In this document: positions 41,300-56,650 of the stretch, in pieces
Layout: every line of letters starts with the position of its first letter
Position numbering within the stretch: the stretch's first letter is position 1
The notes under the pieces: model-generated
Told to the model about the DNA's origin: nothing
Database searches by the model: none
Seen by the model: the letters and a program-made list of their open reading frames with translations, nothing else
Translations under genes and position numbers: made by a program
Source: Candidatus Enterousia sp.
Lineage (GTDB): Bacteria; Pseudomonadota; Alphaproteobacteria; Rs-D84
Assembly (NCBI GenBank): GCA_045614665.1
Contig: JAZLDI010000005.1
Span: 3,738-67,737 of the forward strand
Direction of reading: 5' to 3'
DNA: 64,000 nucleotides

Positions 41300-43861
41300 T
41301 TATTCGGTTATTGTGTCGGATATTGGTGCAGTTCCTGGCTTGCAATATCCCCACGATGTATTTGCACCTGTTTCGTTATAGAATTGTGTGAATAATGTGT
41401 CGCCCGTGACATCATGTTTGTCGTCACCTGATTCTGTTTGTGTACCGTCGGGGGCGTCCGTTGTTTTACCTTTTGTATCGACCCACGTTGTATCAACCCA
41501 AATCCCTCCCAGGCGTTCGCACTCTTTTGCCAGTGCAACCCCCATATCAACACGAATAGAATCCATAACAATATTTACGTCCGCTAAAACGCTGGCTGAT
41601 ATAGAATATTCCGAATTGTTTGCGTTGGATGGACGTACACAGGTTTGAATTGCGTAACGGACCAGGCGCTGGTACAAGCTGCCTGCATAATCACCGCAAT
41701 TGTGACTGGTTTTTAAACTGTCAGTAATAGTGTCGTCGGTTTCTGTTTTGGGCTTTTGTGGTCCGGCTGTGCCACCTGGACAGATATATCCTGTTGGGCA
41801 TGGGGTGCAACTGTTGCCATCGATGGCGTTGCCGTTATATGTAATAACACCATCTTTGATTGTGGTCATATAATACCCAGTACCTGGGATATAATCGCCG
41901 TTTCCATCGGTGTCTGATGCGGTACAGGATGTATACTTTCTTATTGCGGGACATATATATCCGTATGCGCCCGGTGACGTGGTGTTGCCGCCAGGATTTT
42001 CAAATTCAGGTTGTGAAAAGTCTGTTTCAACTTCTGTCTTGATATTGCTTTGCCACAATTGCTGATTACAGGCGTAAATTTGTGCATATTTCTGTTCGCC
42101 GGGGGCATATACACGACAAGCATATGGATAGCCGTGTAATGTGTCGTTGCTGGGGACGGCGCAAATGTCGCGTGCAAAATCTTGCAGGGTGACGCGACAT
42201 TCTTTGGCGATTTTGGAATCGGTTAAATCGTGCATTGCATTGGCAAGTTCTTTCAGACCGTCCGGTCCGCCACCATAAAGGTTTGAACAGGCGTTTAATT
42301 TTTCACGACATAATTCTTCGGATAGTTCCAATCGTTGCCCCAGTAACAATTGTTCTTTGACGTTACTAAAATCTTTCAGGGATTGGCTTTGTTCATCGTA
42401 ACAGGCATTTACAACATCCAGACATTCATTCTTTACGTCGCGGATTCGTGATTGCTGGCCCTGGTATATTTCGGTTATTGCCTGGCGAACAAATTCATCC
42501 CAGACATCGTCGGCCACGTCACGACAGGTGTCAAGGCTGGATTCGGCAAAAATACGCATACGGTTCAGTTCAGCCACAATCATACGATTTGTTTGATTGG
42601 TCAGGATATTGCCGGACAAAGATATTTGGCTATCCAACTGATAAAAATTAGATGTGTAAATTGGTTCGCCAGTTTCGCGGTTTAAATAACGCCCCGTAAC
42701 ATCCAAACAGTGCACATAATCAGTGCCGCACGCGGTTTCGGATGTCAAATCTTTGCGGACGTTGGCAATGCAATCGTTGATGGATGTTGAATTGTGTGCG
42801 TTATAATTTTCAAGGCGCGCGGTATGCATTTCACGTTCTGTTTCGCGGACTGAGCCCTTGGCCGCGGTGGTTTTGGAATCCAGACTGTTTGACAGGGTTG
42901 TACAATCGTTTTCAATATACATTCCGTATGCGGATACAACCATATTTAATGTGGATTTGGATTCACAGGTTTCAGCAACCATTTGACTGCATTGTGCATG
43001 GACGGCATTGTATAATGATTCACCGGTTAGATTGGCGATATTTGCGCCGTCTGCCAGGTCGGTGGTTCTCCATATTTGTTTTATATCACCACCAATGTCC
43101 AATGTACCCGATGTGGAAAGAGATTGTGACTTGGCCTGGGCCAATATGGATCCGATATTTGCCAATTGTTGGGCGGATGCAGATGTATCTTTTGTTGATG
43201 AGGCAATTTTTTCGCCAGCGGATGTGGAAATCATGGCATTAACTTCTGCTGTGGATTTGTCAATCATGCTAAGGTTAAAATCTTTGAAGTCCTGTAATTG
43301 ATTTGCCGTATCAGATAACAAATTTTCCCTAGATTTAATTTGATTTAATCGGGACGAGCACGCACAACGACGATATGTTTCATTTTGGGTTGCGCAAAAT
43401 TGATCCATACATGTAAAATATGCGTCACGGCATGCGTTGTATCCGGCACCAAAAGTGTTGGATTGAATTGTAGTAGTTGCTGCACGTGCAGGGCGAGATA
43501 TGCTGGTTGTGGCGCGTGTGGTCGTTAGGTTGCTGGCACTACGCGTGGCGGATTTTGTTGCAGGTCTCAGCGATGTCGTTGATGTGGCGCGTGCGCCTGT
43601 GATGGATTGCGAAATACGTGCGGGCGAACCGGTGCGCACACGTTGTGTAGTGCGTGCGGTTTTGTTTTGTGTCGCGCGTGATGCAGTTGCACGGGATGAA
43701 ATCGACTGTGTTCCAGATGTGCGAGGGGTAACGTTTGTATGTGAAATATTGTGGGGTATTGTGGATTGCCCCCTGGATATAGCGGCACCATCACGAACAG
43801 CAGCGTTGGCAATGCCAACACTGACGATATACGCCATAATAAGAAGCCAGGTCCTTTTCAT
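41300..43861 (-). CDS. Exported Cys-rich protein, paralog family member B (853 aa)
   Basis: Signal peptide. Thr/Ser/Arg/Ala-rich tract. CRDAYFTCMDQFCATQNETYRRCACS module and ACGTDYVHC motif. Confidence 0.85.
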   Translation of the reverse strand: MKRTWLLIMAYIVSVGIANAAVRDGAAISRGQSTIPHNISHTNVTPRTSGTQSISSRATASRATQNKTARTTQRVRTGSPARISQSITGARATSTTSLRPATKSATRSASNLTTTRATTSISRPARAATTTIQSNTFGAGYNACRDAYFTCMDQFCATQNETYRRCACSSRLNQIKSRENLLSDTANQLQDFKDFNLSMIDKSTAEVNAMISTSAGEKIASSTKDTSASAQQLANIGSILAQAKSQSLSTSGTLDIGGDIKQIWRTTDLADGANIANLTGESLYNAVHAQCSQMVAETCESKSTLNMVVSAYGMYIENDCTTLSNSLDSKTTAAKGSVRETEREMHTARLENYNAHNSTSINDCIANVRKDLTSETACGTDYVHCLDVTGRYLNRETGEPIYTSNFYQLDSQISLSGNILTNQTNRMIVAELNRMRIFAESSLDTCRDVADDVWDEFVRQAITEIYQGQQSRIRDVKNECLDVVNACYDEQSQSLKDFSNVKEQLLLGQRLELSEELCREKLNACSNLYGGGPDGLKELANAMHDLTDSKIAKECRVTLQDFARDICAVPSNDTLHGYPYACRVYAPGEQKYAQIYACNQQLWQSNIKTEVETDFSQPEFENPGGNTTSPGAYGYICPAIRKYTSCTASDTDGNGDYIPGTGYYMTTIKDGVITYNGNAIDGNSCTPCPTGYICPGGTAGPQKPKTETDDTITDSLKTSHNCGDYAGSLYQRLVRYAIQTCVRPSNANNSEYSISASVLADVNIVMDSIRVDMGVALAKECERLGGIWVDTTWVDTKGKTTDAPDGTQTESGDDKHDVTGDTLFTQFYNETGANTSWGYCKPGTAPISDTITE

Positions 43862-44189: not shown

Positions 44190-44321
44190 ATATAATCCCT
44201 TGATATTTTTCTGAAATCAATGATATTGCGTGGTTGATAAAATTGCAAGAATTTTTTATTTCACTTGTGCAAGTCTTAAATGTTTGATAAAATATTTATA
44301 AATTTTGTAGTGGGGATGCTT

Positions 44322-46478
44322 ATGAATATAAGAATATTTGCAGCGTTATTGTGTTTGGTGCCAGGGATTTCTTTTGCCGCGTCGCGGGCGGATTCTGCAC
44401 GTGTCGGGGTTGGTCGTGTGTCTAATGCGGCGGCGCGTATGCCGACGCTGACAGCGTATGCAAATGGCAATGCGTCGACGGAAGTTGCAACCGATGGTGG
44501 TGCGGATATAAAACCAGGGCAGGGGACAACAGATATTCCATCGGAAGAATTGCCAAAAGAAGATGGGGCTGAAACGCCTGCGTCTGGAAATGGCGCCAAT
44601 TGTCGTGAGGCGTATCGCGCGTGTATGGATGATTTTTGTCTGTTGGACGAGTCTGAAGGGTATCGTTGTGCGTGTTCGTCAAATATTGAAAAATCCAAAA
44701 GTTTAATCCAGGAAATTCAGTCTATTCAAGAAGAGGCAGATAGACTTTATACAGAGGGGGTAGAGCGTGAACAACTGGGGGCCAAGGCAAAATTGGTTTT
44801 TGGTGAAAGCGATGCGGCCAAGAAGAATTCTGTTCTGACGGGATTTGATTTCTCGGCATGGGCGACCAGTGGTGCCGGTGATGAAGAAGATGAGGGGCTG
44901 GATGCGGATTTTGAAATTGGTGACGCGCTTTATGAAATGGCAGCAGAACAATGTGCTGCGGAATTAGAGGCGTGTGGTTCCAAAGCAGAAATGGAAGAAT
45001 TGCTTTATTCTCGCCAAATTACGGCTGATTGCAAATCGTATAATACGTATCTAAATGAACAAAAAATTAATGCCCAGGCGAATAAGCGCACCGCAGAAGC
45101 TGCCGTTCGCAAGGCGCGCTTGGAAATGCTGGATACGACGAACAAGTATAATCAGGGTGAATGCTTGTTGGCGTACAAGGCGTGTGTTGCGGACAAGGGG
45201 GGGTGTGGTTCTAATTTTGAGAACTGTTTAGATGCAGATTTGTTGGGACGGCGTGCGAATGCGTGCGAAGGGGTTCTGGATCAATGTATGGCGGTTCGCG
45301 ATTATGTTTTAAAGGACTGGAAAGCAGAATCCCAGGCTATATTGCTTGATGCCGAAAAATATGCTGATAAATATCGTCGGCAGACGTGTTTGGCCCAGAT
45401 TCAAGTATGTTTGGAAGATGGGTGTTCAACATCGACAAATTCGGCGTGTTTGTCTGATGTTAATGTTGCGGCTGGTGTTTGCCCAATCATCGATGAATGT
45501 AATGAAATGATTCCTGGGTTAAAAAGTGTCGTAAATGATAAGCTGTTTTATTTACGGACCCAGTTCTGCCAGAATGATATTGATGCTTGTTTGCGGGATA
45601 AGTGTGGTGAAAACTTTGCTGCGCCTGAATGTGTCGGGAAAAGGGCAAAAGACATTGCAAAGTTGTGTCCCCAGGATATGTTCCCGTCGTGTAAAAACGA
45701 AAGTCAGTTTGATATTATTGTCCAGGCAGCGTTATTGCAGATGGATTATCAGTTGATGCAGGGTTGTGTAAACCACTTTGATGAACAATTGGGCAAGGTT
45801 TGTGGAACCGATATGGCGTGTTTGCCAAATGATGCAACGGTCGAAGGGTTGATGGCCCTGCCAAAGAATGAGGCAGGGTTTGCGGCGTTGCGTGCGACGG
45901 TGCGTGATAATTCCGCCACCGCGGTTGAGGAATTCTTTGCACAGTTTGAAAAGGATATGACAGTTTCTGCCTGCCTGGACAGCGAAAAGCCAAAGGGTAA
46001 AAAGAGTTTGGCTGATACTGTGTTTAATTCGGCAAAAATGATTGCGAAAATTGGTGCTGAAAATCGTGCGTTGCGTGCGTTGGAAACTAAAATTGCAGAA
46101 CTGTCACGTCAGCAAGACTTGGCCGAGGCTGAGAAAAACTGTTACAATACCTACAAGGTTGAAAAGCCAGATGAGTCTGATAAAAATTATAGTTATATCC
46201 GCAGTGTAACATTTGAACCAGATTTGCGTAATTGTCACGTTTGTCGTATGCAACAAGTTTGTGAAACTGGTGGCGAATCCAAGGCATCATCGGCGTTAAA
46301 GGCGGCAGCGGGCGGTTTGTCGGCGGGTGCGGCGGCCGGAACGATGATTAATGCCGGTTGGGGGACCGCGATTGGCGGAATCGTTGGTGCGGTCGGTGCT
46401 GGTATTGGTGGTGCTTTGTCGGGTGGTAAACAAGATTTTTGTCAGGAAATTGAATCCTGTGAAGACATTAATATGTAA
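44322..46478 (+). CDS. Exported Cys-rich protein, paralog family member C, with C-terminal glycine-zipper anchor
   Basis: Start at ATG 44322 (44316 is also possible). Signal MNIRIFAALLCLVPGISFA. CREAYRACMDDFCLLDESEGYRCACS module. Motifs GGCGSNFENC and DKCGENFAAPEC. C-terminus AAGGLSAGAAAGTMINAGWGTAIGGIVGAVGAGIGGALSGG. Confidence 0.85.
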   Translation: MNIRIFAALLCLVPGISFAASRADSARVGVGRVSNAAARMPTLTAYANGNASTEVATDGGADIKPGQGTTDIPSEELPKEDGAETPASGNGANCREAYRACMDDFCLLDESEGYRCACSSNIEKSKSLIQEIQSIQEEADRLYTEGVEREQLGAKAKLVFGESDAAKKNSVLTGFDFSAWATSGAGDEEDEGLDADFEIGDALYEMAAEQCAAELEACGSKAEMEELLYSRQITADCKSYNTYLNEQKINAQANKRTAEAAVRKARLEMLDTTNKYNQGECLLAYKACVADKGGCGSNFENCLDADLLGRRANACEGVLDQCMAVRDYVLKDWKAESQAILLDAEKYADKYRRQTCLAQIQVCLEDGCSTSTNSACLSDVNVAAGVCPIIDECNEMIPGLKSVVNDKLFYLRTQFCQNDIDACLRDKCGENFAAPECVGKRAKDIAKLCPQDMFPSCKNESQFDIIVQAALLQMDYQLMQGCVNHFDEQLGKVCGTDMACLPNDATVEGLMALPKNEAGFAALRATVRDNSATAVEEFFAQFEKDMTVSACLDSEKPKGKKSLADTVFNSAKMIAKIGAENRALRALETKIAELSRQQDLAEAEKNCYNTYKVEKPDESDKNYSYIRSVTFEPDLRNCHVCRMQQVCETGGESKASSALKAAAGGLSAGAAAGTMINAGWGTAIGGIVGAVGAGIGGALSGGKQDFCQEIESCEDINM

Positions 46479-46494
46479 GAAAAAGAGAGAGACT

Positions 46495-48972
46495 ATGAAA
46501 AAATTAGGTACATTTTGTAGTGTGTTGGCGGCGTTATCTGTGATGACATCGGCGGATGTGATGGCTGCAACTAAGAAGACATCGACAACAAAACAATCCA
46601 CCATACAAAAGGGAACATCTGTTCGTGCCAAGGTGACGGCAACGGGGCTTTATGATCAGGAATGTTACGATGCGTTTTATGGGTGTATGGATCAATTCTG
46701 TATTTCCGATACATCAAATGGGGGCAGTTGCGCGTGCAGTGATGCATCATTTGAGTATGAAAATAAATTCAAGGCAATCCAAGATAAAATGATAGAGGCC
46801 GAACGTATTGCCACCGAAGAGGTTGAAAAGGTTCAGGCCGGTGCTGATGCAGACATCATTTTCACGGGTAAACGTGAATACAATGATGATGGTTCAATCG
46901 TTGATTTGGGTGAAGAAAAACAGACCAAGGAACAGAAACGGGCCGATTTGTTGGCAATGTTTGAAACAGATTTGTATGATGACGAAGAAGAAGAAGAATA
47001 TGTTGATATTTCTGATTTGACGGGAGATGCATTGTTTGAAGCCGCCGAAGAACTGTGTCTGGAACAGATTCCAGAATCGTGCGAGGCAAAAGATATCGCG
47101 TTATTGCGCCAAATGTATTCACGTCAGATTGTTTCCGATTGCAAGGCGTTTGAAAATACAATCGCATCCAAATCCGTTGACGCAGACAAGGCAATGGCTG
47201 CCGCCGAAGGCGCGGTGCGTGCCGCATTGAAAGAAAGTTTTGACAGTGCGAACAAGTATGATTTGGGAACCTGTATGGTTGAATTCAAGAAGTGTATGCG
47301 TACCGAGGACGCCTGTGGATCGAATTGGGATAACTGTGTATCAACGATTGCGTCTGAAAATATGCAAAATGAAAAGGCCAAGAATGTTGCCGGCACGACC
47401 GTAGAAACCGTGAATGTCTATGACATTACGGCATCGACGATGGAAATATTGGATTCAAAACGTATAATTTGTGAACGTGTTCTGGACAGTTGCGTTGCCG
47501 TTCGTGATAACGTTTGGCCGGCTTTCCTGCGCGAGGCGGCACCAACAATTAAACTGGCCGAGGGGCGTGCAGAGTCCAAAATGCGTCAGTCCTGTTTGAC
47601 CAATATTTCAAGCTGTATCCAAAAGGCATGTAAAGATGATATTGTCGGCAAGGGGGTTGATTCTATGGATGCGTGTTTATCGCGCCCAGATATGGCACGT
47701 TCATTCTGCAAGGTGGAAATTGACCCATGTGAACGTATGGAACCGTTAATCTGGGGATATGTCGTAGATAAATTGGCGGCGATGCGTGTTGATGCCTGTA
47801 CACAAGAAGTCAAAGATTGCTTTACCGCGGATACACGTTGTGGTGAAAACTTTGAAAATTGTATTGGTATGGATTATGACTATATCCACGATATTTGCCC
47901 AATAGACAGCTTGGTTGTGTGCAAGGCGAATAATCCAAAATTCTCAATGGATGATTTGGATTCTATGTTGATGGGGCTGTATTTAAATATTGATAATTCT
48001 GCCCTGGATACGTGCCAGAATCTGGTTGATGAAAAGATGATGGAAATTTGTGGTTCCACCACAGATTGTAGCAGTTTTGCCGCAGACGATGTCATTGGGA
48101 CAGGCAGTTTATTCTCGCAAAAACTGGATGATGTGTATCGTGTGACGGGTATGATATCATTTGGTTCAATAAAGATGGGGGCGGCATCTGTGGTTTCTGA
48201 TGACGAAGAGATATTAAAACCCGGTGAAATTGGTGTAAAAGACTATATCAGTCAGATACGTGCCAAAAATGTCAATGTAAAAGATTCAGCGGCGATAATA
48301 TCATCGATTGAAAGCGAATTGGAAAATATTGCGGGAACAATTAATCGTACCATTGAAATGATAGAATTGGATCCAGAAATTCAGTATTGTATAAACGGTC
48401 GTGATTTGTCCCAGATTACTGGTCAAAAGGGCGCTAAAACCACGGGGCGTTTCCCGAATCTGTTGAATCAGTTAAAGGTTCAAATTGCGACGGCGGCTTT
48501 GCGTAAGGCACAGGATAATTATAACGAGAAGTTCCAGGACCTGGTTGCGGATGCGACCAAAGATGCAGATACGGATTTGGCCCAGTATATGTGTCAGAAG
48601 ATGGCCGAAACAGGTGCAATGACATTAACCAGTCCAAGTACCGAAATAATGCCACCATATGCAATTTCGTATGATGTTGGTGTGGGGCTGACGGCGGCAG
48701 ATTTGTCCCAGGGGGGCAAAGGCGTGGCGTCGCTGGGCGGTGTAACATTCAAGAACAATGGATATCTGGGTAAATCAAATACAGATATGAATGCAGGCAC
48801 CAAAGAAACAACCGCGATATTTAATCGCGAAACCCGTACGTGTAGCGTTTGTACAACGGTTGTTACCCAGGATTGTAAGACCTCTGGCTCCAAGTCCTGG
48901 TTCCATAATAACCGTAATATAGAATGCAAGGCGGGTGAACCGGTTGAAAAGTGTGAAAATATCCAGATGTAA
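46495..48972 (+). CDS. Exported Cys-rich protein, paralog family member D (825 aa)
   Basis: Start at ATG 46495 (MKKLGTFCSVLAALSVMTSADVMA). CYDAFYGCMDQFCISDTSNGGSCACS module. Motifs DACGSNWDNC and TRCGENFENC. Collinear with member A. Confidence 0.85.
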   Translation: MKKLGTFCSVLAALSVMTSADVMAATKKTSTTKQSTIQKGTSVRAKVTATGLYDQECYDAFYGCMDQFCISDTSNGGSCACSDASFEYENKFKAIQDKMIEAERIATEEVEKVQAGADADIIFTGKREYNDDGSIVDLGEEKQTKEQKRADLLAMFETDLYDDEEEEEYVDISDLTGDALFEAAEELCLEQIPESCEAKDIALLRQMYSRQIVSDCKAFENTIASKSVDADKAMAAAEGAVRAALKESFDSANKYDLGTCMVEFKKCMRTEDACGSNWDNCVSTIASENMQNEKAKNVAGTTVETVNVYDITASTMEILDSKRIICERVLDSCVAVRDNVWPAFLREAAPTIKLAEGRAESKMRQSCLTNISSCIQKACKDDIVGKGVDSMDACLSRPDMARSFCKVEIDPCERMEPLIWGYVVDKLAAMRVDACTQEVKDCFTADTRCGENFENCIGMDYDYIHDICPIDSLVVCKANNPKFSMDDLDSMLMGLYLNIDNSALDTCQNLVDEKMMEICGSTTDCSSFAADDVIGTGSLFSQKLDDVYRVTGMISFGSIKMGAASVVSDDEEILKPGEIGVKDYISQIRAKNVNVKDSAAIISSIESELENIAGTINRTIEMIELDPEIQYCINGRDLSQITGQKGAKTTGRFPNLLNQLKVQIATAALRKAQDNYNEKFQDLVADATKDADTDLAQYMCQKMAETGAMTLTSPSTEIMPPYAISYDVGVGLTAADLSQGGKGVASLGGVTFKNNGYLGKSNTDMNAGTKETTAIFNRETRTCSVCTTVVTQDCKTSGSKSWFHNNRNIECKAGEPVEKCENIQM

Positions 48973-48975
48973 GAT

Positions 48976-49004
48976 AAAAATCCCCCAAGTGGGGGATTTT
49001 TTAT
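48976..49004 (+). terminator. Rho-independent terminator
   Basis: AAAAATCCCCC-aagt-GGGGGATTTTTT. Confidence 0.85.
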
Positions 49005-49020
49005 TTGTGGTTCATAGATA

Positions 49021-49048
49021 TTAAAACACCCCGTTTGGGGTGTTTTAT
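49021..49048. terminator. Hairpin terminator for the convergent nrd operon
   Basis: AAAACACCCC-gttt-GGGGTGTTTTA. Confidence 0.75.
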
Positions 49049-49050
49049 GA

Positions 49051-49752
49051 TTATTCCCGCCATATGACAGATTTGAACATAGAATTTATTTTTTCGCGTA
49101 GGGGAATGTCATTAAAAAACTGTTCCCGGGATGCTGAATCTGTTTTATGGGCGTCATCTTCAAAGTGTGGGATATATTTTTGAATCGCAATATTGGCAAC
49201 GTTGCGTGCGTGCAAAATATCCACAATTTCCAGCAAGTCAGGTTTTGTGATAAAGCGTGGGTCGGTGGTTATGCGAACCTCAAATTCTTTGCCAGTGTTG
49301 CGCCATATATCCAGTGATTTTATCATATTATCATATGCAATATGTTGCCCCGTCAGGTCTGGGTATTTTTCGCGTGTTGCCTTGAAATCCAGGCCAATCC
49401 AATCAACCACTTCTGTCGCACGGCGTAATGTTTCTGGATAGAATCCGTTGGTGTGTAATCCGATTTTAAATCCCAATTCGCGTACACGTCGCATATATTC
49501 AATGGCTGTGTCGCCTTGCATCAATGCTTCGCCCCCTGAAAACACGACAGATTCCAGTTTGCCAACACGCGATTTCAACCATTCAAATACCCGTTCTGGG
49601 TCATATTCGCCATCGTGTGGGGTTAATAAATGGGGATTGGAACAATATGCACACCGCAATGGACATCCAACCAAGAACAGCACAGCTGCCAATTTCCCTG
49701 GATAATCAATTGTGGTGAATGAAACCAATCCCCCGATTTGTACAGTTCTCAT
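49051..49752 (-). CDS. nrdG: Anaerobic ribonucleoside-triphosphate reductase activating protein (radical SAM)
   Basis: GCPLRCAYCSNPHL (CxxxCxxC). VVFSGGE. Immediately downstream of the nrdD parts. Confidence 0.9.
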   Translation of the reverse strand: MRTVQIGGLVSFTTIDYPGKLAAVLFLVGCPLRCAYCSNPHLLTPHDGEYDPERVFEWLKSRVGKLESVVFSGGEALMQGDTAIEYMRRVRELGFKIGLHTNGFYPETLRRATEVVDWIGLDFKATREKYPDLTGQHIAYDNMIKSLDIWRNTGKEFEVRITTDPRFITKPDLLEIVDILHARNVANIAIQKYIPHFEDDAHKTDSASREQFFNDIPLREKINSMFKSVIWRE

Positions 49753-49762
49753 AATGATAAAC

Positions 49763-49942
49763 TTATGCTGCTTTCTTTAACAGTTCAGCGTGACGGCAGC
49801 CCGTAGTTAAACAGTTTGATTCTGTAAATGTTTTGCGTTCGCAAAATTCAGAATATTTGCCAATGTTAAAGTTCGATACCGGGCGAATAAAACCCATAGA
49901 GCGTGAAAATACTTCGCAACGTGTTCTTTGGCAATTAGTCAT
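49763..49942 (-). CDS. 59-aa ORF carrying the NrdD glycyl-radical loop (MTNCQRTRCEVFSRSMGFIRPVSNFNIGKYSEFCERKTF...)
   Basis: My own translation (below the ORF-track cutoff). GGGAGGA SD 7 nt before the ATG. RSMGF...FNIGK..EF..RK matches the RxxG[YF]...N.GK..E...R C-terminal motif of class III RNRs. Confidence 0.7.
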   Translation of the reverse strand: MTNCQRTRCEVFSRSMGFIRPVSNFNIGKYSEFCERKTFTESNCLTTGCRHAELLKKAA

Positions 49943-49991
49943 AATGTGTTCCTCCCTTTCTTTTATGCTGACTGTTAATAGTTGTTTATTG

Positions 49992-52016
49992 TTATGCCTG
50001 ATTTGCGCCGTTTTCTGCGTCGCATTTCGGACAGAATTCGTGTTTGCCCGGTAAATATCCGTGTTTTGGACAAATCGAAAATGTTGGTGTTAATGTCATA
50101 TATGGCACCTTGTAATTTTCGAAGATTGTGCGGACAATTTTTTGTGCGGCATCGCCACTGGATACTGGTTCACCCATATACAGGTGTAACATCGTTCCAC
50201 CGGTGTATTTACGCTGTAACTCTTCCTGGTGTTCCAGGGCGACGAACGGGTCATCGGTAAAGTTCACAGGTAACTGGGTTGAATTTGTGTAATATGGTGC
50301 GTCCTTGGTGCCTGCAGTGATGATGTCTGGGAAATTCTTGACGTCTGTTTTTGCGAAGCGATATGAACATCCCTCGGCTGGGGTAGCTTCCAGATTATAC
50401 AGGTTTCCGGTTTGTTCCTGGAAATTGGCCAGGTTTTCACGGATAAAGTCCATAACGTCCAGAACCATTTTTTTACCAAATACGGTCGCAATGTTTTCAG
50501 CACCGTTGGTAAAGTTTAATACCATTTCATTTGCGCCATTTACACCAATGGTAGAGAAGTGGTGACTCCAATCGCCCAGATAACGGCGGGTAAACGGATA
50601 CAGACCGCGTTCCATATTCTTGGTGATAATTTTGCGTTTGATTTCCAGGCTGTCACGGCCCAAATCCAATAGACGTTTCAGCTCGCGGAACAGGCCATCA
50701 CGGTCACCCTTGTGTATATATCCCAAGCGCGCCAGATTGATTGTTACAACGCCGATGGAACCCGTCTTTTCAGCAGAACCAAACAGACCGCCACCGCGCT
50801 TTAACAATTCGCGTACGTCCAGACGCAGACGGCAACACATAGAACGAACATCTGTTGGATTCAAGTCAGAATTCAGGAAGTTCTGGAAATTTGGAATCCC
50901 GTACTTTGCCGCCAATTCAAACAATGGTTTTACATTTGGGTGTTCCCATGGGAAATCCGGTGTAATGTTATATGTGGGAATTGGGAATGTGAACGGACGG
51001 CCCAGGGCATCACCTTCGGTCATAACTTCTATAAATGCCTTGTTAATCATATCCATTTCTGTTTGCAGGTCGCCATAGGTAAAGTCAACTTGTTTGCGAC
51101 CGACAAATGGACGTTGTGGTTTCAAATCCGTTGGACAGGTCCAATCAAATGTAAAATTGATGAATGGTGTCTGGGTTCCCCAACGGCATGGTACACCACA
51201 GTTGAATACCAATGTCTGCATCGCATTCTTTACATCTTCATATGACAGGTTGTCAATGCGAACGTATGGTGCCAGATATGTGTCAACCGATGAAAATGCC
51301 TGGGCGCCTGCGAATTCATTTTGCAATGTACCAAGGAAGTTTACCATGTGCGATATAGCCGTCGCCATGTGTTTTGCAGGCTCGCAATGTAAATAACCTG
51401 GGACGCCGTTAAACCCCTCGTACAATAATTCACGCAGGGACCAACCTGCACAATATCCCGTCAGCCAACCCAAATCGTGTACGTGAATGGCAGCGTTTTT
51501 GTGTGCCTCTGCCACGGCGCGTGGGTACAGATTCAACCAATATTCAGCAGTTACACGTTCAGATGTACGCAAAATCAAACCACCAATAGAATAGCCAACA
51601 TTTGCGTTTTCTTTGATACGCCAATTAGAACCACCGACATATCCCTCTATAACATCAACAGCATCTACCATCGATTCGCGGATTTCAGTGCGTTTCTGGC
51701 GATAGATGATATATGATTCGGCCGTTTTATATGCGCCATTATCCATCAGTTTGCGAATCACAGTATCCTGGATTGTTTCAACCGATGGTGCGCGTTGAAT
51801 GTATTCAGCCGCCAATGTATCCAAGACAGATTGTGTGATTGTCGCAATTTGTTCATTACTTAGTTCGGTTGTAACATCGACTGCACGTTTAATTGCGTTG
51901 TATATTTTGATAGCATTAAAGGGTACAGTTTCACCACCACGTTTTTGAACCGCAACCAGGGTAGTTGTGAAATTTGGTGTAAATTCAATTTTTGTTTCAA
52001 TCTGTGTTTCTGACAT
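49992..52016 (-). CDS. nrdD: Anaerobic ribonucleoside-triphosphate reductase large part (ATP-cone plus catalytic barrel), lacking the glycyl-radical loop
   Basis: ATP-cone VQKRGGETVPFNAIKIYNAI. NrdD core. Ends at FSICPKHGYLPGKHEFCPKCDAENGANQA-stop, just before the position where RxxGY normally follows. Confidence 0.92.
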   Translation of the reverse strand: MSETQIETKIEFTPNFTTTLVAVQKRGGETVPFNAIKIYNAIKRAVDVTTELSNEQIATITQSVLDTLAAEYIQRAPSVETIQDTVIRKLMDNGAYKTAESYIIYRQKRTEIRESMVDAVDVIEGYVGGSNWRIKENANVGYSIGGLILRTSERVTAEYWLNLYPRAVAEAHKNAAIHVHDLGWLTGYCAGWSLRELLYEGFNGVPGYLHCEPAKHMATAISHMVNFLGTLQNEFAGAQAFSSVDTYLAPYVRIDNLSYEDVKNAMQTLVFNCGVPCRWGTQTPFINFTFDWTCPTDLKPQRPFVGRKQVDFTYGDLQTEMDMINKAFIEVMTEGDALGRPFTFPIPTYNITPDFPWEHPNVKPLFELAAKYGIPNFQNFLNSDLNPTDVRSMCCRLRLDVRELLKRGGGLFGSAEKTGSIGVVTINLARLGYIHKGDRDGLFRELKRLLDLGRDSLEIKRKIITKNMERGLYPFTRRYLGDWSHHFSTIGVNGANEMVLNFTNGAENIATVFGKKMVLDVMDFIRENLANFQEQTGNLYNLEATPAEGCSYRFAKTDVKNFPDIITAGTKDAPYYTNSTQLPVNFTDDPFVALEHQEELQRKYTGGTMLHLYMGEPVSSGDAAQKIVRTIFENYKVPYMTLTPTFSICPKHGYLPGKHEFCPKCDAENGANQA

Positions 52017-52040: not shown

Positions 52041-52056
52041 ACACAACATATAGTGA
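52041..52056. promoter_or_regulatory. NrdR-box-like palindrome 1 (ACACAACATATAGTGA)
   Basis: Matches the acaCwAtATaTwGtgt consensus at most positions. 25 nt upstream of the nrdD ATG. Confidence 0.55.
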
Positions 52057-52073
52057 TTGTTTATTTGATTTGA

Positions 52074-52089
52074 TATCAATATATAGTTT
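52074..52089. promoter_or_regulatory. NrdR-box-like palindrome 2 (TATCAATATATAGTTT)
   Basis: Core CaAtATaTaG matches. Centre-to-centre distance to box 1 is 33 bp. Overlaps a candidate -10 element (TATATT) on the minus strand. Confidence 0.5.
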
Positions 52090-52444
52090 TTAGGCCTGGT
52101 AAACAATCTATAAAACATAATTTTTTTTGTATTTTTTGCTTTACTTTTCAAAAGGCGTATTTTCCGCCTGTTTGCGCGTAGAAACAGAATCGGTTGTCTG
52201 ATACGAAATAATGTTTTGTGCCAAGGTTTTGTGTTTTTTTGCCTGGGAAATGATTCGTTTTTTAAATAAAAATACAAAATATTGATTAAAAATTGAGAAT
52301 CAGACACTATATCTTGACAAGATGAAAGTCTTTATTTGTCTAAAATAGGTTGTGTTTCCTACAAAAAACGGGTACATTATGATTATGCCCGGTGGCAATG
52401 GTGCCCGGGGCAACCTTAACATAAAAAATAAAAAGAGCATTATT

Positions 52445-54034
52445 ATGATTAAAAACATATATGAAATGCTGCAGCAGGCGTGCGAACAGAACAAAGACCG
52501 TATTTTCTTTGTCCGCGAAAAAGAAACCTATGCAGATTTGTTAAGAAAGGTAAAGCAACGTGCCGTCTTATTGGCAAAACGCTTTGGTATTAAAAAGGGT
52601 GATACGGTTGCGATTCTGTCGGGTAATACACCGGACTTCGTTCGTTCATACTTTGCCATTGCGTCCCAGGGGGCACGTGTTTTGATGTTGGATACCGGTT
52701 TGCAGACGAACGAGCATATCAATATGATAAAGCGTACGGATTGTAAGTTGGTTTTGGCGCAAAAGCATTATTTTATTGATGATGCGTCGGCTGAAATGTT
52801 CGATATCGAAAATATTGATGACACAGATGAAAAAGATTTTGTTATGGCTGATGTGGAACGTAGCGACGTTGCACAACTGTCCTTTACATCGGGGTCGACC
52901 GGCAATCCAAAGGTTGTTGGATTGACACATAATAATTTGTTGGGTTTGGTGGATGGTGCGCAATTTTACAAAGATGTGATCTTACCAGAATATACATTTT
53001 ATGGATTCCTGCCGTTGTATCATATATACGGTGTGGTAATTAATATTATTGTGCCGGTATGCCTGCACGGGAAATTGTTATTACAGCCTGTATTAAAACC
53101 ACAAGAATTCTTAAAAGACTTTAAACAGTATAAGCCAGAGGTTATTCCCGCCGTTCCACGTATTTGGGAGGTTTTCTATAAGAAAATTGTAGATGCAGCG
53201 CGTGCAAAACACGCCTGGACACTGATTCGCGTGGTTGTGTCGTTGCGTCATGTGTTGCGTGCAATTGGTTTGGGCGGTGTTGTGAAAAAGGTTACAAAAC
53301 CAATACACGACCTGTTTGGGGGTAACACCAAAGTATTGGTTTCGGCCGGTGCAACATTAAAACCATCGATTCGTAAATTTTATGAAAAATTAGGCTTTGT
53401 GGTTGGGGATTGCTATGGCTTGACCGAGACAACGGGGCCGGGCAACTTTAACTTTGCTTTCCGTCGTGCGAATGGAAAAATGTACTATGCGGGCCCATTG
53501 TTGGGTAATGAATTAAAGATTCATAATCCGAACAAAGAAGGGATTGGTGAAATCTGGATCCGTGGCAATATGGTTATGCCGGGATATATCGACAATGATG
53601 CCGCCAATGCCGAAGCGTTTGAAGATGACTGGTTCAAGACCGGTGATATTGGAATGCTGGACAAGAAAGGGCGCCTGATTGTAAAGGGACGCCAAAAGCA
53701 GGTTATCGTTCTGGACAGTGGTAAAAACGTGTATCCAGATGAACTGGAAGATCTTTATATGCAGAACGAAGAAATCCTGGCGGCGGCGGTGTTTGAATAC
53801 GTAATAAAGGGAAAAACGGTCCCATATGGTGTATTCCAGGTAAAGCCGGGTACAACCGTTGAACGTGTTGATTTCTTGATCAAGAAATCTAATTTGGCAA
53901 TTGCCCAATATAAATGGGTGCGCGATTTCGCAATTACAGAGGAAGAATTGCCACAAACATCCGCCAAGAAAATCAAGCATTTTGCGGTACGTGAACTGCT
54001 TGATAATGGCGCATTTATTCGTGCCACGAAATAG
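52445..54034 (+). CDS. AMP-dependent acyl-CoA synthetase (long-chain fatty-acid-CoA ligase type)
   Basis: Start at ATG 52445. FTSGSTGNPKVVGLTHNNL. GDIGMLDKKGRLIVKGRQKQ. Confidence 0.88.
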   Translation: MIKNIYEMLQQACEQNKDRIFFVREKETYADLLRKVKQRAVLLAKRFGIKKGDTVAILSGNTPDFVRSYFAIASQGARVLMLDTGLQTNEHINMIKRTDCKLVLAQKHYFIDDASAEMFDIENIDDTDEKDFVMADVERSDVAQLSFTSGSTGNPKVVGLTHNNLLGLVDGAQFYKDVILPEYTFYGFLPLYHIYGVVINIIVPVCLHGKLLLQPVLKPQEFLKDFKQYKPEVIPAVPRIWEVFYKKIVDAARAKHAWTLIRVVVSLRHVLRAIGLGGVVKKVTKPIHDLFGGNTKVLVSAGATLKPSIRKFYEKLGFVVGDCYGLTETTGPGNFNFAFRRANGKMYYAGPLLGNELKIHNPNKEGIGEIWIRGNMVMPGYIDNDAANAEAFEDDWFKTGDIGMLDKKGRLIVKGRQKQVIVLDSGKNVYPDELEDLYMQNEEILAAAVFEYVIKGKTVPYGVFQVKPGTTVERVDFLIKKSNLAIAQYKWVRDFAITEEELPQTSAKKIKHFAVRELLDNGAFIRATK

Positions 54035-56000: not shown

Positions 56001-56582
56001 CTATTTAGTTTTTTGACCGATACCGTGGTACAGCATATTGAAATGCTCACGACATACGGATTTATAATTAGAATCCCCCAGGGCGAATTGGTCGCCCGCA
56101 CGGATAACGCGGCCGTCTTTGCCAAACCGCAAGTGGTGCGTTGCCAATTCCATACAACCGTTTATCTGACAATTCGATTCGTGCAGGTGTAATTCGGCGC
56201 CGACCTCTATTAATCGTTTGGATGCGGGGAACATTTGTTCGTTACTGTCACTCATTAAACCATAACACATAACAGGGATATTCATGTCGTCTGCGATGCG
56301 TACCAGTTTATCAATATCGGATGGTGAAAAAAATTGAACCTCGTCAACCAGTAATACCCGTGTGTCTGGGGCGGGAGTGAAGTTTTTTAGATTCGGCATC
56401 GCCAGGGCCGGTGTTTCAATCCCAATGCGCGATTTTACCGTGTCAGATGAAAAGCGTGTGTCAAATGATGGCTTGATAACCTGGGTTTTTACGCCGTTTT
56501 GATTATAGTTATATGCGTTGATAATCAGCCGAGCAGATTTAGAACTGCTCATAACGCCATAGTGAAAGTGTAGTGTCGCCAT
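56001..56582 (-). CDS. tdk: Thymidine kinase
   Basis: Start at ATG 56582. MATLHFHYGVMSSSKSARLI...LLVDEVQFF...VMCYGL...SVCREHF is collinear with E. coli Tdk. Confidence 0.9.
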   Translation of the reverse strand: MATLHFHYGVMSSSKSARLIINAYNYNQNGVKTQVIKPSFDTRFSSDTVKSRIGIETPALAMPNLKNFTPAPDTRVLLVDEVQFFSPSDIDKLVRIADDMNIPVMCYGLMSDSNEQMFPASKRLIEVGAELHLHESNCQINGCMELATHHLRFGKDGRVIRAGDQFALGDSNYKSVCREHFNMLYHGIGQKTK

Positions 56583-56650
56583 GTGCCTTATCCCTTTGTT
56601 TTTTGTCGTTGGGATTATTAGCATAAAAAAGACAGAAAAAAATATATTTT

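Follow-up and report, generated by a model that had tools for sequence, protein, structure and literature searches.

Where does an anaerobic ribonucleotide reductase (RNR) carry its radical when the gene for its catalytic chain stops short of the radical site? In ordinary class III enzymes (NrdD), the glycyl-radical loop makes up the last ~40 residues of the same polypeptide. In the 64,000-nt stretch of Candidatus Enterousia sp. DNA analyzed here (the window, to whose full length all coordinates refer unless a locus is named), the nrdD frame closes ahead of this loop, and the loop is encoded by a separate small open reading frame (ORF) that is followed by nrdG, the gene for the radical-S-adenosylmethionine (SAM) activase. 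The three genes are read on the minus strand, and we consider it highly likely that they specify a two-polypeptide class III RNR in which the radical resides on an obligate small subunit. The elements of the locus are the following:

49992..52016, minus strand: nrdD-large, class III RNR catalytic chain of 674 residues, with ATP-cone, barrel and zinc knuckles and without glycyl-radical loop
51684..51950, minus strand: ATP-cone domain, residues 23-111 of the large chain (Pfam PF03477, E 4e-20)
50829..50843, minus strand: finger-loop motif S392-M-C394-C395-R396, presumed site of the thiyl-radical cysteine (homology to Thermotoga NrdD)
50022..50072, minus strand: zinc-ribbon knuckles C649-P-K-H652 ... 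C662-P-K-C665, the final conserved element of the large chain (motif conservation)
49943..49991, minus strand: intercistronic spacer of 49 nt, containing the block TTAACAGTCAGCA and a Shine-Dalgarno (SD) sequence
49950-49956, minus strand: SD sequence GGGAGGA, 7 nt ahead of the small-ORF ATG at 49942
49763..49942, minus strand: small subunit gene, 59 residues (Pfam NRDD positions 526-562)
49916..49918, minus strand: Cys9 codon of the small subunit (alignment conservation)
49892..49894, minus strand: Gly17 codon of the small subunit, predicted radical glycine (alignment to Thermotoga NrdD)
49051..49752, minus strand: nrdG, radical-SAM activase of 233 residues with C30-x3-C34-x2-C37 (TIGR02495 and Pfam Radical_SAM)

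A sequence-only reading of this DNA had placed the nrdD stop codon, the 49-nt spacer, the SD sequence, the ATG at 49942 and an nrdG gene 10 nt further on, and our reading of the minus strand confirmed all of these coordinates. The large chain ends with ...FSICPKHGYLPGKHEFCPKCDAENGANQA, followed by the stop codon TAA (49994-49992) and, two codons later, by a second in-frame TAA. The start of nrdG at 49752 lies 10 nt past the small ORF and has no obvious SD sequence of its own. The encoded activase carries the cluster motif CPLRCAYC (CxxxCxxC) and matches NCBIfam TIGR02495 (NrdG2) with 187 bits against a cut-off of 131, as well as Pfam Radical_SAM.

Piece by piece, the two chains are homologous to unsplit NrdD enzymes. 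The large chain covers positions 1-530 of 562 in Pfam NRDD (PF13597; E 7e-169) and positions 4-650 of 684 in the NCBIfam model NF006126, where it scores 1020.6 bits (cut-off, 548); it also matches TIGR02487 (465 bits against a cut-off of 326). The small ORF takes up both profiles where the large chain leaves them, at positions 526-562 of Pfam NRDD (E 8e-6) and 646-682 of NF006126. The catalytic polypeptide thus ends before the glycyl-radical loop, and the radical segment lies on a separate 59-residue ORF, as had been proposed. The SMCCR finger loop is invariant in all 20 aligned large chains, from Enterousia to Ralstonia and Paracoccus; a catalytic role for S392-M-C394-C395-R396 is suggested by homology to Thermotoga NrdD, in which an SCCR motif has been described (PMC4493059).

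The C-terminus of the large chain had been taken for one half of a zinc ribbon. This has to be corrected, since both knuckles are present (C649-x2-H652 and C662-x2-C665), and they align to the CxxC...CPKC of Prevotella copri NrdD (8p23). The pattern CPxHG[YH]...CPxC occurs in every locus of our survey of 96 split loci and in both unsplit relatives described below. Whether split or unsplit, every member of this subfamily has His at the second zinc-ligand position, while T4 NrdD has four Cys residues; zinc binding is a prediction here. Close homologues of the large chain are 676-688 residues long, with entries of 713 residues carrying an N-terminal extension; six of them end with ...CPKHGYLPGxxEFCPKCDAE plus a short variable tail, and the same end recurs in the 96 loci.

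The small ORF, which ends at 49763, translates into MTNCQRTRCEVFSRSMGFIRPVSNFNIGKYSEFCERKTFTESNCLTTGCRHAELLKKAA (59 residues) and contains the loop R14-S-M-G17-F and the RPVSNFNIGKYSEF-ERK motif. In an alignment of 20 small homologues, 31 columns are invariant, including R14, M16, G17, R20-P21-V22 and N24-F25-N26. The Pfam and NCBIfam alignments agree on the placement of Gly17. A broader small-protein profile aligns wtRvMGY to Y616-M-R-I-V-G621-Y of Thermotoga NrdD, a weak match among PDB sequences (E 0.6) that we used solely for the position of the glycine; the profile of the Enterousia small proteins gave no match to PDB sequences at E up to 1. As G621 is the radical site of Thermotoga NrdD (PMC4493059), the aligned Gly17 is the predicted radical site of the small subunit. 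Its cysteines differ in their conservation: C9 does not vary in the Enterousia-clade alignment and reaches at least 90% conservation among stand-alone small proteins at large, C34 shows no or almost no variation, and C4, C45 and C50 vary even within Enterousia. The extra Cys pairs that the sequence-only reading regarded as gains of this protein are consequently lineage noise as far as the variable positions are concerned. Completion of a zinc site between the subunits by Cys9 would be speculation, given that a Cys3His set is present in the large chain.

Past the canonical end of NrdD, the small subunit continues into a clade-specific tail of 20 residues (...G48-x-R50-H51-x-x-L54-x-K56-x-x-A59). 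Such tails are lineage-specific yet recurrent. Those of Enterousia read ...GxRHxELxKKAA (49763-49825 in the window), and those of other groups end with ...AAE or are Cys-rich (...KCGCSK or ...KKCCCRK). By their sequence, the -AA endings resemble ssrA-type degrons, and the Cys pairs of the tails resemble the re-reduction tails of class I and class II RNRs.

Candidatus Enterousia, of the order Rs-D84, has reduced genomes of <1 Mb and a fermentative lifestyle (PMC12306168). A search with the small ORF yielded 255 homologue clusters with 76-100% identity, all of them 57-90 residues long, the longer ones being start miscalls through the SD region. In a scan of one genome per GTDB species, the ORF was found in 227 species genomes of Candidatus Enterousia or uncultured Alphaproteobacteria, which stem from the guts of humans, ruminants, horses and chickens; in one Ca. 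Enterousia sp. (L008), it is 100% identical. Independent contigs, including one of 958 kb, keep the three genes in unchanged order. The median pairwise ratio of nonsynonymous to synonymous substitution rates (dN/dS) among 84 distinct nucleotide sequences of the small ORF is 0.064, demonstrating purifying selection.

The survey of 96 loci also demonstrates that the two frames are independent of each other. The large ORF always closes with a stop codon (96/96, mostly TAA), and its product lacks the glycyl-radical loop in 96/96 loci. The spacer to the small ORF ranges from -41 to +63 nt (median 40), the relative frame of the small ORF is 0, +1 and +2 in 36, 37 and 23 loci, respectively, and an SD sequence (GGGAGGA or AAGGAG) precedes its ATG by 6-9 nt. 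At the overlapping extreme (L091-L093:4986-5026), the small ORF starts before the large ORF has ended, with an overlap of 41 nt as computed by script or 26 nt according to the called genes. Relatives with identical or near-identical proteins have spacers of 45-51 nt that differ by indels not in multiples of three, and despite these indels the stop codon, the 13-nt block TTAACAGTCAGCA and the SD sequence are retained in the closest relatives (L008-L015). Some loci have a stop codon directly upstream of the small-ORF start in the frame of the small ORF. The same split, with its SD sequence and start codon, that the sequence-only reading had suggested to look for in related genomes is accordingly kept throughout.

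The split layout is not specific to this clade; it is also present in cultured Proteobacteria and Campylobacterota. A small-protein profile found 2,766 matches in 1.84 billion representative proteins, of which the best 150 are all 47-118 residues long, and a second such search returned at least 7,953 clusters, the best 120 all being 53-83 residues long. These wider small proteins share the motif ER[TQ]xCE[VI]WTRVMGYxRPVxxFNxGKxxExxxRxxFxE, and their leaders and tails are variable. Representative loci are:

Turicimonas muris: large chain 676 residues, small chain 57 residues, three-gene layout
L091-L093: large chain 694 residues as called, small chain 58 residues, small ORF overlapping the end of the large ORF
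L094-L096: large chain 687 residues, small chain 62 residues, three-gene layout
Ralstonia pseudosolanacearum GMI1000 megaplasmid: large chain 687 residues, small chain about 58 residues, three-gene layout
Paracoccus: large chain 581 residues, apparently without ATP-cone; small chain 60 residues, annotated 'hypothetical protein'
Cupriavidus necator H16 pHG1: large chain 676 residues; small chain 66 residues, named nrdD in RefSeq; accessions WP_011154155 (large), WP_011154154 (small) and WP_011154153 (NrdG)
Sulfuricurvum kujiense: large chain 704 residues, small chain 58 residues, three-gene layout

Sequence matches to the small ORF were further obtained by tblastn in Bradyrhizobium, Azospira, Cereibacter, Allochromatium, Acidiphilium and Thiothrix, where they lie on plasmids or chromids. 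According to PMC2864759, which cites Siedow 1999, the nrdDG genes of pHG1 are essential for anaerobic, denitrifying growth. Since the pHG1 locus is split, an enzyme of this type evidently works in vivo, to the extent that this second-hand account holds. The same paper gives the nrdD and nrdG genes of C. metallidurans as Rmet_5137 and Rmet_5139, with one locus tag skipped between them.

Two unsplit relatives that were recovered in the plasmid search locate the break point. The enzymes of Actinomyces oris (L181; 659 residues, ...CPVHGYLVGEHLTCDKCAELHPEAEPVECEVWTRVMGYFRPV...) and Acidithiobacillus ferrooxidans (L182; 627 residues, ...CPVHGYLPGAHHHCPRCAAEEPATIPRVCEVWTRVMGYHRPV...) are 55-58% similar to the window enzyme, as other split enzymes are, and possess a linker of 10-12 residues between the second zinc knuckle and CEVWTRVMGY. 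It is this linker in which the chain is broken; in the split forms it is replaced by a tail of 9-34 residues, a stop codon, the spacer and a leader of 8-25 residues. Both unsplit enzymes contain the equivalent of Cys9 (as ...xCEVWTRVMGY) and the CxxH first knuckle, so these two features are ancestral and not gains of the split form. In a neighbor-joining tree, the two unsplit enzymes fall within the set of split ones, and just 12 of 200 bootstrap replicates unite them as a pair. The pattern hints at fission or fusion on more than one occasion, or at transfer, in a sample that is small and far from sufficient for certainty.

Could the two ORFs nevertheless be one gene? The frame of the small ORF is open upstream to about position 50090, so that a single indel could fuse the two frames and the window sequence by itself would leave room for one; the rival explanation is an error of sequencing or assembly, or a recent pseudogene with the small ORF as a remnant of a continuous nrdD. 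Against it stand the occurrence of the split in 227 species genomes, in many independent assemblies and in cultured bacteria, the stop codon, SD sequence and ATG that are always kept while all three relative frames occur, a dN/dS value of about 0.06, and those loci in which an in-frame stop directly precedes the small ORF. Recoding by programmed frameshift, stop read-through or bypass would likewise join the ORFs into a canonical NrdD, and the short spacer with its conserved block might be read as a signal for such an event. Yet frames 0, +1 and +2 are used about equally, the spacer varies from -41 to 63 nt with some ORFs overlapping, the window has two in-frame stops past its large ORF, the strong SD sequence and the ATG are conserved, and the closest relatives encode identical or nearly identical proteins in different frames. 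Conservation, selection, frame variation and the retained stop and SD sequences thus exclude an assembly indel, a pseudogene and a conserved frameshift or read-through; we regard the first two as practically ruled out and give recoding in general only a minimal chance. The earlier proposal of a genuine two-polypeptide enzyme, as opposed to an indel or a decaying gene, is in full agreement with these data.

Two further explanations accept two polypeptides and differ in what becomes of them. The small protein could be an optional spare part of the GrcA type, with the large chain either using another radical source or being inactive. Small stand-alone radical-domain proteins are indeed known for pyruvate formate-lyase (PMC13450708), and prophages carry orphan copies without a large chain (see below), as expected of an exchangeable module. 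However, none of the 96 large chains has a glycyl-radical loop, so that a spare would have nothing to repair. The profile matched by the small protein is that of NrdD instead of the Gly_radical domain of pyruvate formate-lyase: a Pfam search of the small ORF at E up to 1 gave solely PF13597 and no match to PF01228 (Gly_radical). We consider this explanation improbable. Alternatively, post-translational ligation, for instance by split-intein trans-splicing, might regenerate a single NrdD. Inteins and homing endonucleases often target RNR genes, and there are known cases of fragmented RNRs (PMC3045599, PMC2677866). Here, the tail of 9-34 residues past CPKC and the leader of 8-25 residues are far too short for intein halves, and Pfam found no intein-type domains in either chain, making ligation about as negligible a prospect as an assembly error.

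These considerations leave the two-polypeptide enzyme as our preferred explanation. A radical domain is missing from the large chain, and the operon encodes a radical glycine only in the small protein, from which it follows that this protein is an obligate subunit. The three genes would share a transcript but be translated separately, the small ORF from its own strong SD sequence, and nrdG, starting within 10 nt of the small ORF, may be translationally coupled to it. We infer that NrdG would activate the small chain by abstracting a hydrogen from Gly17 with the aid of SAM, and that the small subunit would then dock its loop non-covalently into the barrel of the large chain, like the C-terminal domain of a single-chain NrdD; the radical would pass from Gly17 to the finger-loop cysteine for nucleotide reduction. 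The small ORF lies closer to nrdG (1-11 nt in most Enterousia loci, with an overlap in some lineages) than to the large ORF (~40 nt); in Ralstonia (L097:4694-4731), nrdG even begins before the small ORF has ended, with an overlap of 38 nt. This tight linkage fits the small chain as the substrate of the activase.

An adaptive rationale for such an arrangement may lie in the sensitivity of the glycyl radical to oxygen, which destroys it through cleavage of the polypeptide backbone (PMC5704485). A radical carrier of 6-7 kDa would be cheaper to replace after such cleavage than an enzyme of 75 kDa, and a separate carrier could encounter the activase with no need for a domain to swing out of the enzyme. 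Among the organisms with a split enzyme are many facultative denitrifiers or microaerophiles, which is compatible with this rationale without proving it.

Several points weigh against the two-polypeptide enzyme as we envisage it. The assembly of the chains and the position of the radical on the small one are deduced from sequence comparisons throughout. An AlphaFold2 model of the concatenated chains reached a mean predicted local distance difference test (pLDDT) score of 51 and a predicted template modeling (pTM) score of 0.43, and is unusable for docking geometry; its alignment was unpaired, with shallow large-chain rows that were all at least 78% identical, and we draw no structural conclusion from it. 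Enterousia genomes may carry another RNR. The genetics of pHG1 are second-hand via PMC2864759, and the deletions may or may not have included the small ORF. Finally, split and unsplit forms coexist in similar ecological settings, and the advantage of cheap replacement is a conjecture of ours.

A more far-reaching version of the two-polypeptide enzyme can be entertained tentatively, although we think it somewhat doubtful. The small protein might be a diffusible and consumable radical carrier that is activated off the enzyme by NrdG and swapped in after oxygen cleavage; its supply would limit the anaerobic synthesis of deoxynucleoside triphosphates, and temperate phages would exploit this by carrying an orphan copy near their lysis or integrase region. 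The main support for an exchangeable carrier comes from prophages, whose orphan copies are expected if the subunit is exchangeable and limiting. A scan of IMG/VR returned 517 stretches related to the small protein. Among the best 80 of these loci (L100-L179), the small gene is a short stand-alone ORF in all, accompanied by nrdD-large upstream in 1/80 and by nrdG downstream in 0/80. The orphan gene (found also at L184-L186:5001-5177) typically follows the lysis genes and lies close to the integrase or to the end of the prophage; in one case (L112:3989-4171), the orphan ORF is situated between a holin/endolysin/Rz-spanin cassette and the integrase and matches phrog_4132, a family labelled 'unknown function'. 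Turicimonas muris possesses both the split operon with its own small subunit and a second small paralogue (P0488) at the end of a prophage, past holin and peptidase M15 genes and adjoining host genes. In the cultured-phage genomes of INPHARED, just one weak match to the phage-type small protein was found. It appears, then, that the phages of hosts with a split enzyme bring along only the radical subunit, which may be exchangeable. If the small protein does act as a consumable carrier, this would be the first glycyl-radical 'cofactor protein' system for the synthesis of DNA precursors, and phrog_4132 would represent a new class of phage auxiliary gene.

How does this enzyme compare with known systems? 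The nearest are single-chain NrdD enzymes with their NrdG (of the NF006126/PRK08270 type; Thermotoga maritima 4COI, phage T4 1H79, Prevotella copri 8P23). Shared with these are the ATP-cone, the barrel, the finger-loop CC, the predicted zinc knuckles, an adjacent radical-SAM activase and the radical loop motif R-x-M/V-G-[YF]-x-R-P-V..FN.GK..E. The window enzyme departs from them by having this loop on a separate 59-residue polypeptide with its own start codon and SD sequence, by the break in the linker behind the zinc ribbon, by the His of its subfamily at the second ligand position, and by the additional conserved 20-residue tail in Enterousia. The analogy to GrcA/YfiD drawn in the sequence-only reading carries only part of the way. 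Like GrcA and vs.6 of phage T4, the small subunit is a small stand-alone protein with a glycyl-radical loop, presumably activated by the cognate activase, and phage-borne copies exist both for the GrcA type (PMC1524935) and for the NrdD-type small protein. GrcA, however, is homologous to the C-terminus of pyruvate formate-lyase (Gly_radical) and backs up an enzyme in which a radical domain is still present, whereas the small protein of the window is homologous to the C-terminus of NrdD and has a partner without a radical domain.

The class II enzyme NrdJa/NrdJb of Pseudomonas aeruginosa also receives its C-terminal functional module as a second polypeptide from a separate adjacent gene (PMC9669993, PMC5704485), but it is B12-dependent, and its detached module is a Cys-rich zinc-finger re-reduction domain and not the radical-bearing element. 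NCBIfam models of the NrdJ type matched the window pieces far below their cut-offs and only in the ATP-cone; both pieces match class III profiles only. In the class I NrdA of Aeromonas phage Aeh1, an RNR catalytic subunit likewise consists of two polypeptides that reassemble (PMC3045599); there, insertion of a homing-endonuclease gene split the protein inside its catalytic core, in contrast to the window, where no mobile element separates the pieces and the split is ancient and widespread.

Our full-text literature searches found no published description of a split NrdD, in agreement with the sequence-only reading and within the coverage of these searches; an earlier mention in subscription papers is possible. 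A review of June 2026 names formate lyases as the sole class of glycyl-radical enzymes with small spare-part proteins (PMC13450708), and PMC5704485 describes class III RNR as having one catalytic chain, which forms an α2 homodimer, and an activase. A large RNR phylogeny dropped all sequences of <400 residues, so that the small chains would have escaped it. Both pieces are already annotated in several RefSeq genomes; the data are thus public, while the interpretation appears not to be.

The surroundings of the operon offer some leads on its expression:

48976..49047, strand not assigned: two terminator-like hairpins just 3' of nrdG (consensus match alone)
52041..52089, strand not assigned: NrdR-box-like palindromes 25-73 nt upstream of the nrdD-large start (consensus matches)

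By their sequence, the hairpins likely mark the end of a three-gene operon, and a scan of the locus found no terminator-like hairpin between the three cistrons. The NrdR-box-like palindromes lie at 52041-52056 (2 mismatches) and 52074-52089 (4 mismatches, counted by eye), their starts being 33 bp apart; since chance would account for as many such matches across the window, they are a lead only. Promoter-like sites at the locus are not more numerous than expected by chance, and an Rfam search of the locus revealed no riboswitch or other RNA family.

Divergently oriented upstream of nrdD, an AMP-binding (acyl-CoA-ligase-like) gene occupies 52352-54034 (plus strand). AMP-binding genes are also found upstream and on the opposite strand at the Turicimonas and L091-type loci and are missing from several other Enterousia loci; their position next to nrdD may be a coincidence. 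Three large ORFs adjoin the operon, at 41300-43861 (minus strand, 853 residues), 44280-46478 (plus strand, 732 residues) and 46351-48972 (plus strand, 873 residues), and no Pfam family matched any of them; the 873-residue ORF is Cys-rich and has an N-terminal hydrophobic stretch as a possible signal sequence. A thymidine kinase gene at 56001-56624 (minus strand; Pfam TK, E 4e-31), 4 kb from the RNR operon, shows that a deoxynucleoside salvage route exists in the same reduced genome.

For genome annotation, the two-chain NrdD means that a large ORF passes for a complete enzyme while its small partner is often called 'hypothetical' or missed. The same layout is available in tractable organisms such as Cupriavidus necator H16, Ralstonia and Paracoccus. 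A two-chain NrdD would change the picture of activation, as no domain would need to flip out to reach the activase, and that of repair after oxygen damage, as just a piece of 6-7 kDa would have to be replaced. The orphan copies in prophages, in turn, suggest an unrecognised influence of phages on the supply of DNA precursors in their anaerobically growing hosts.

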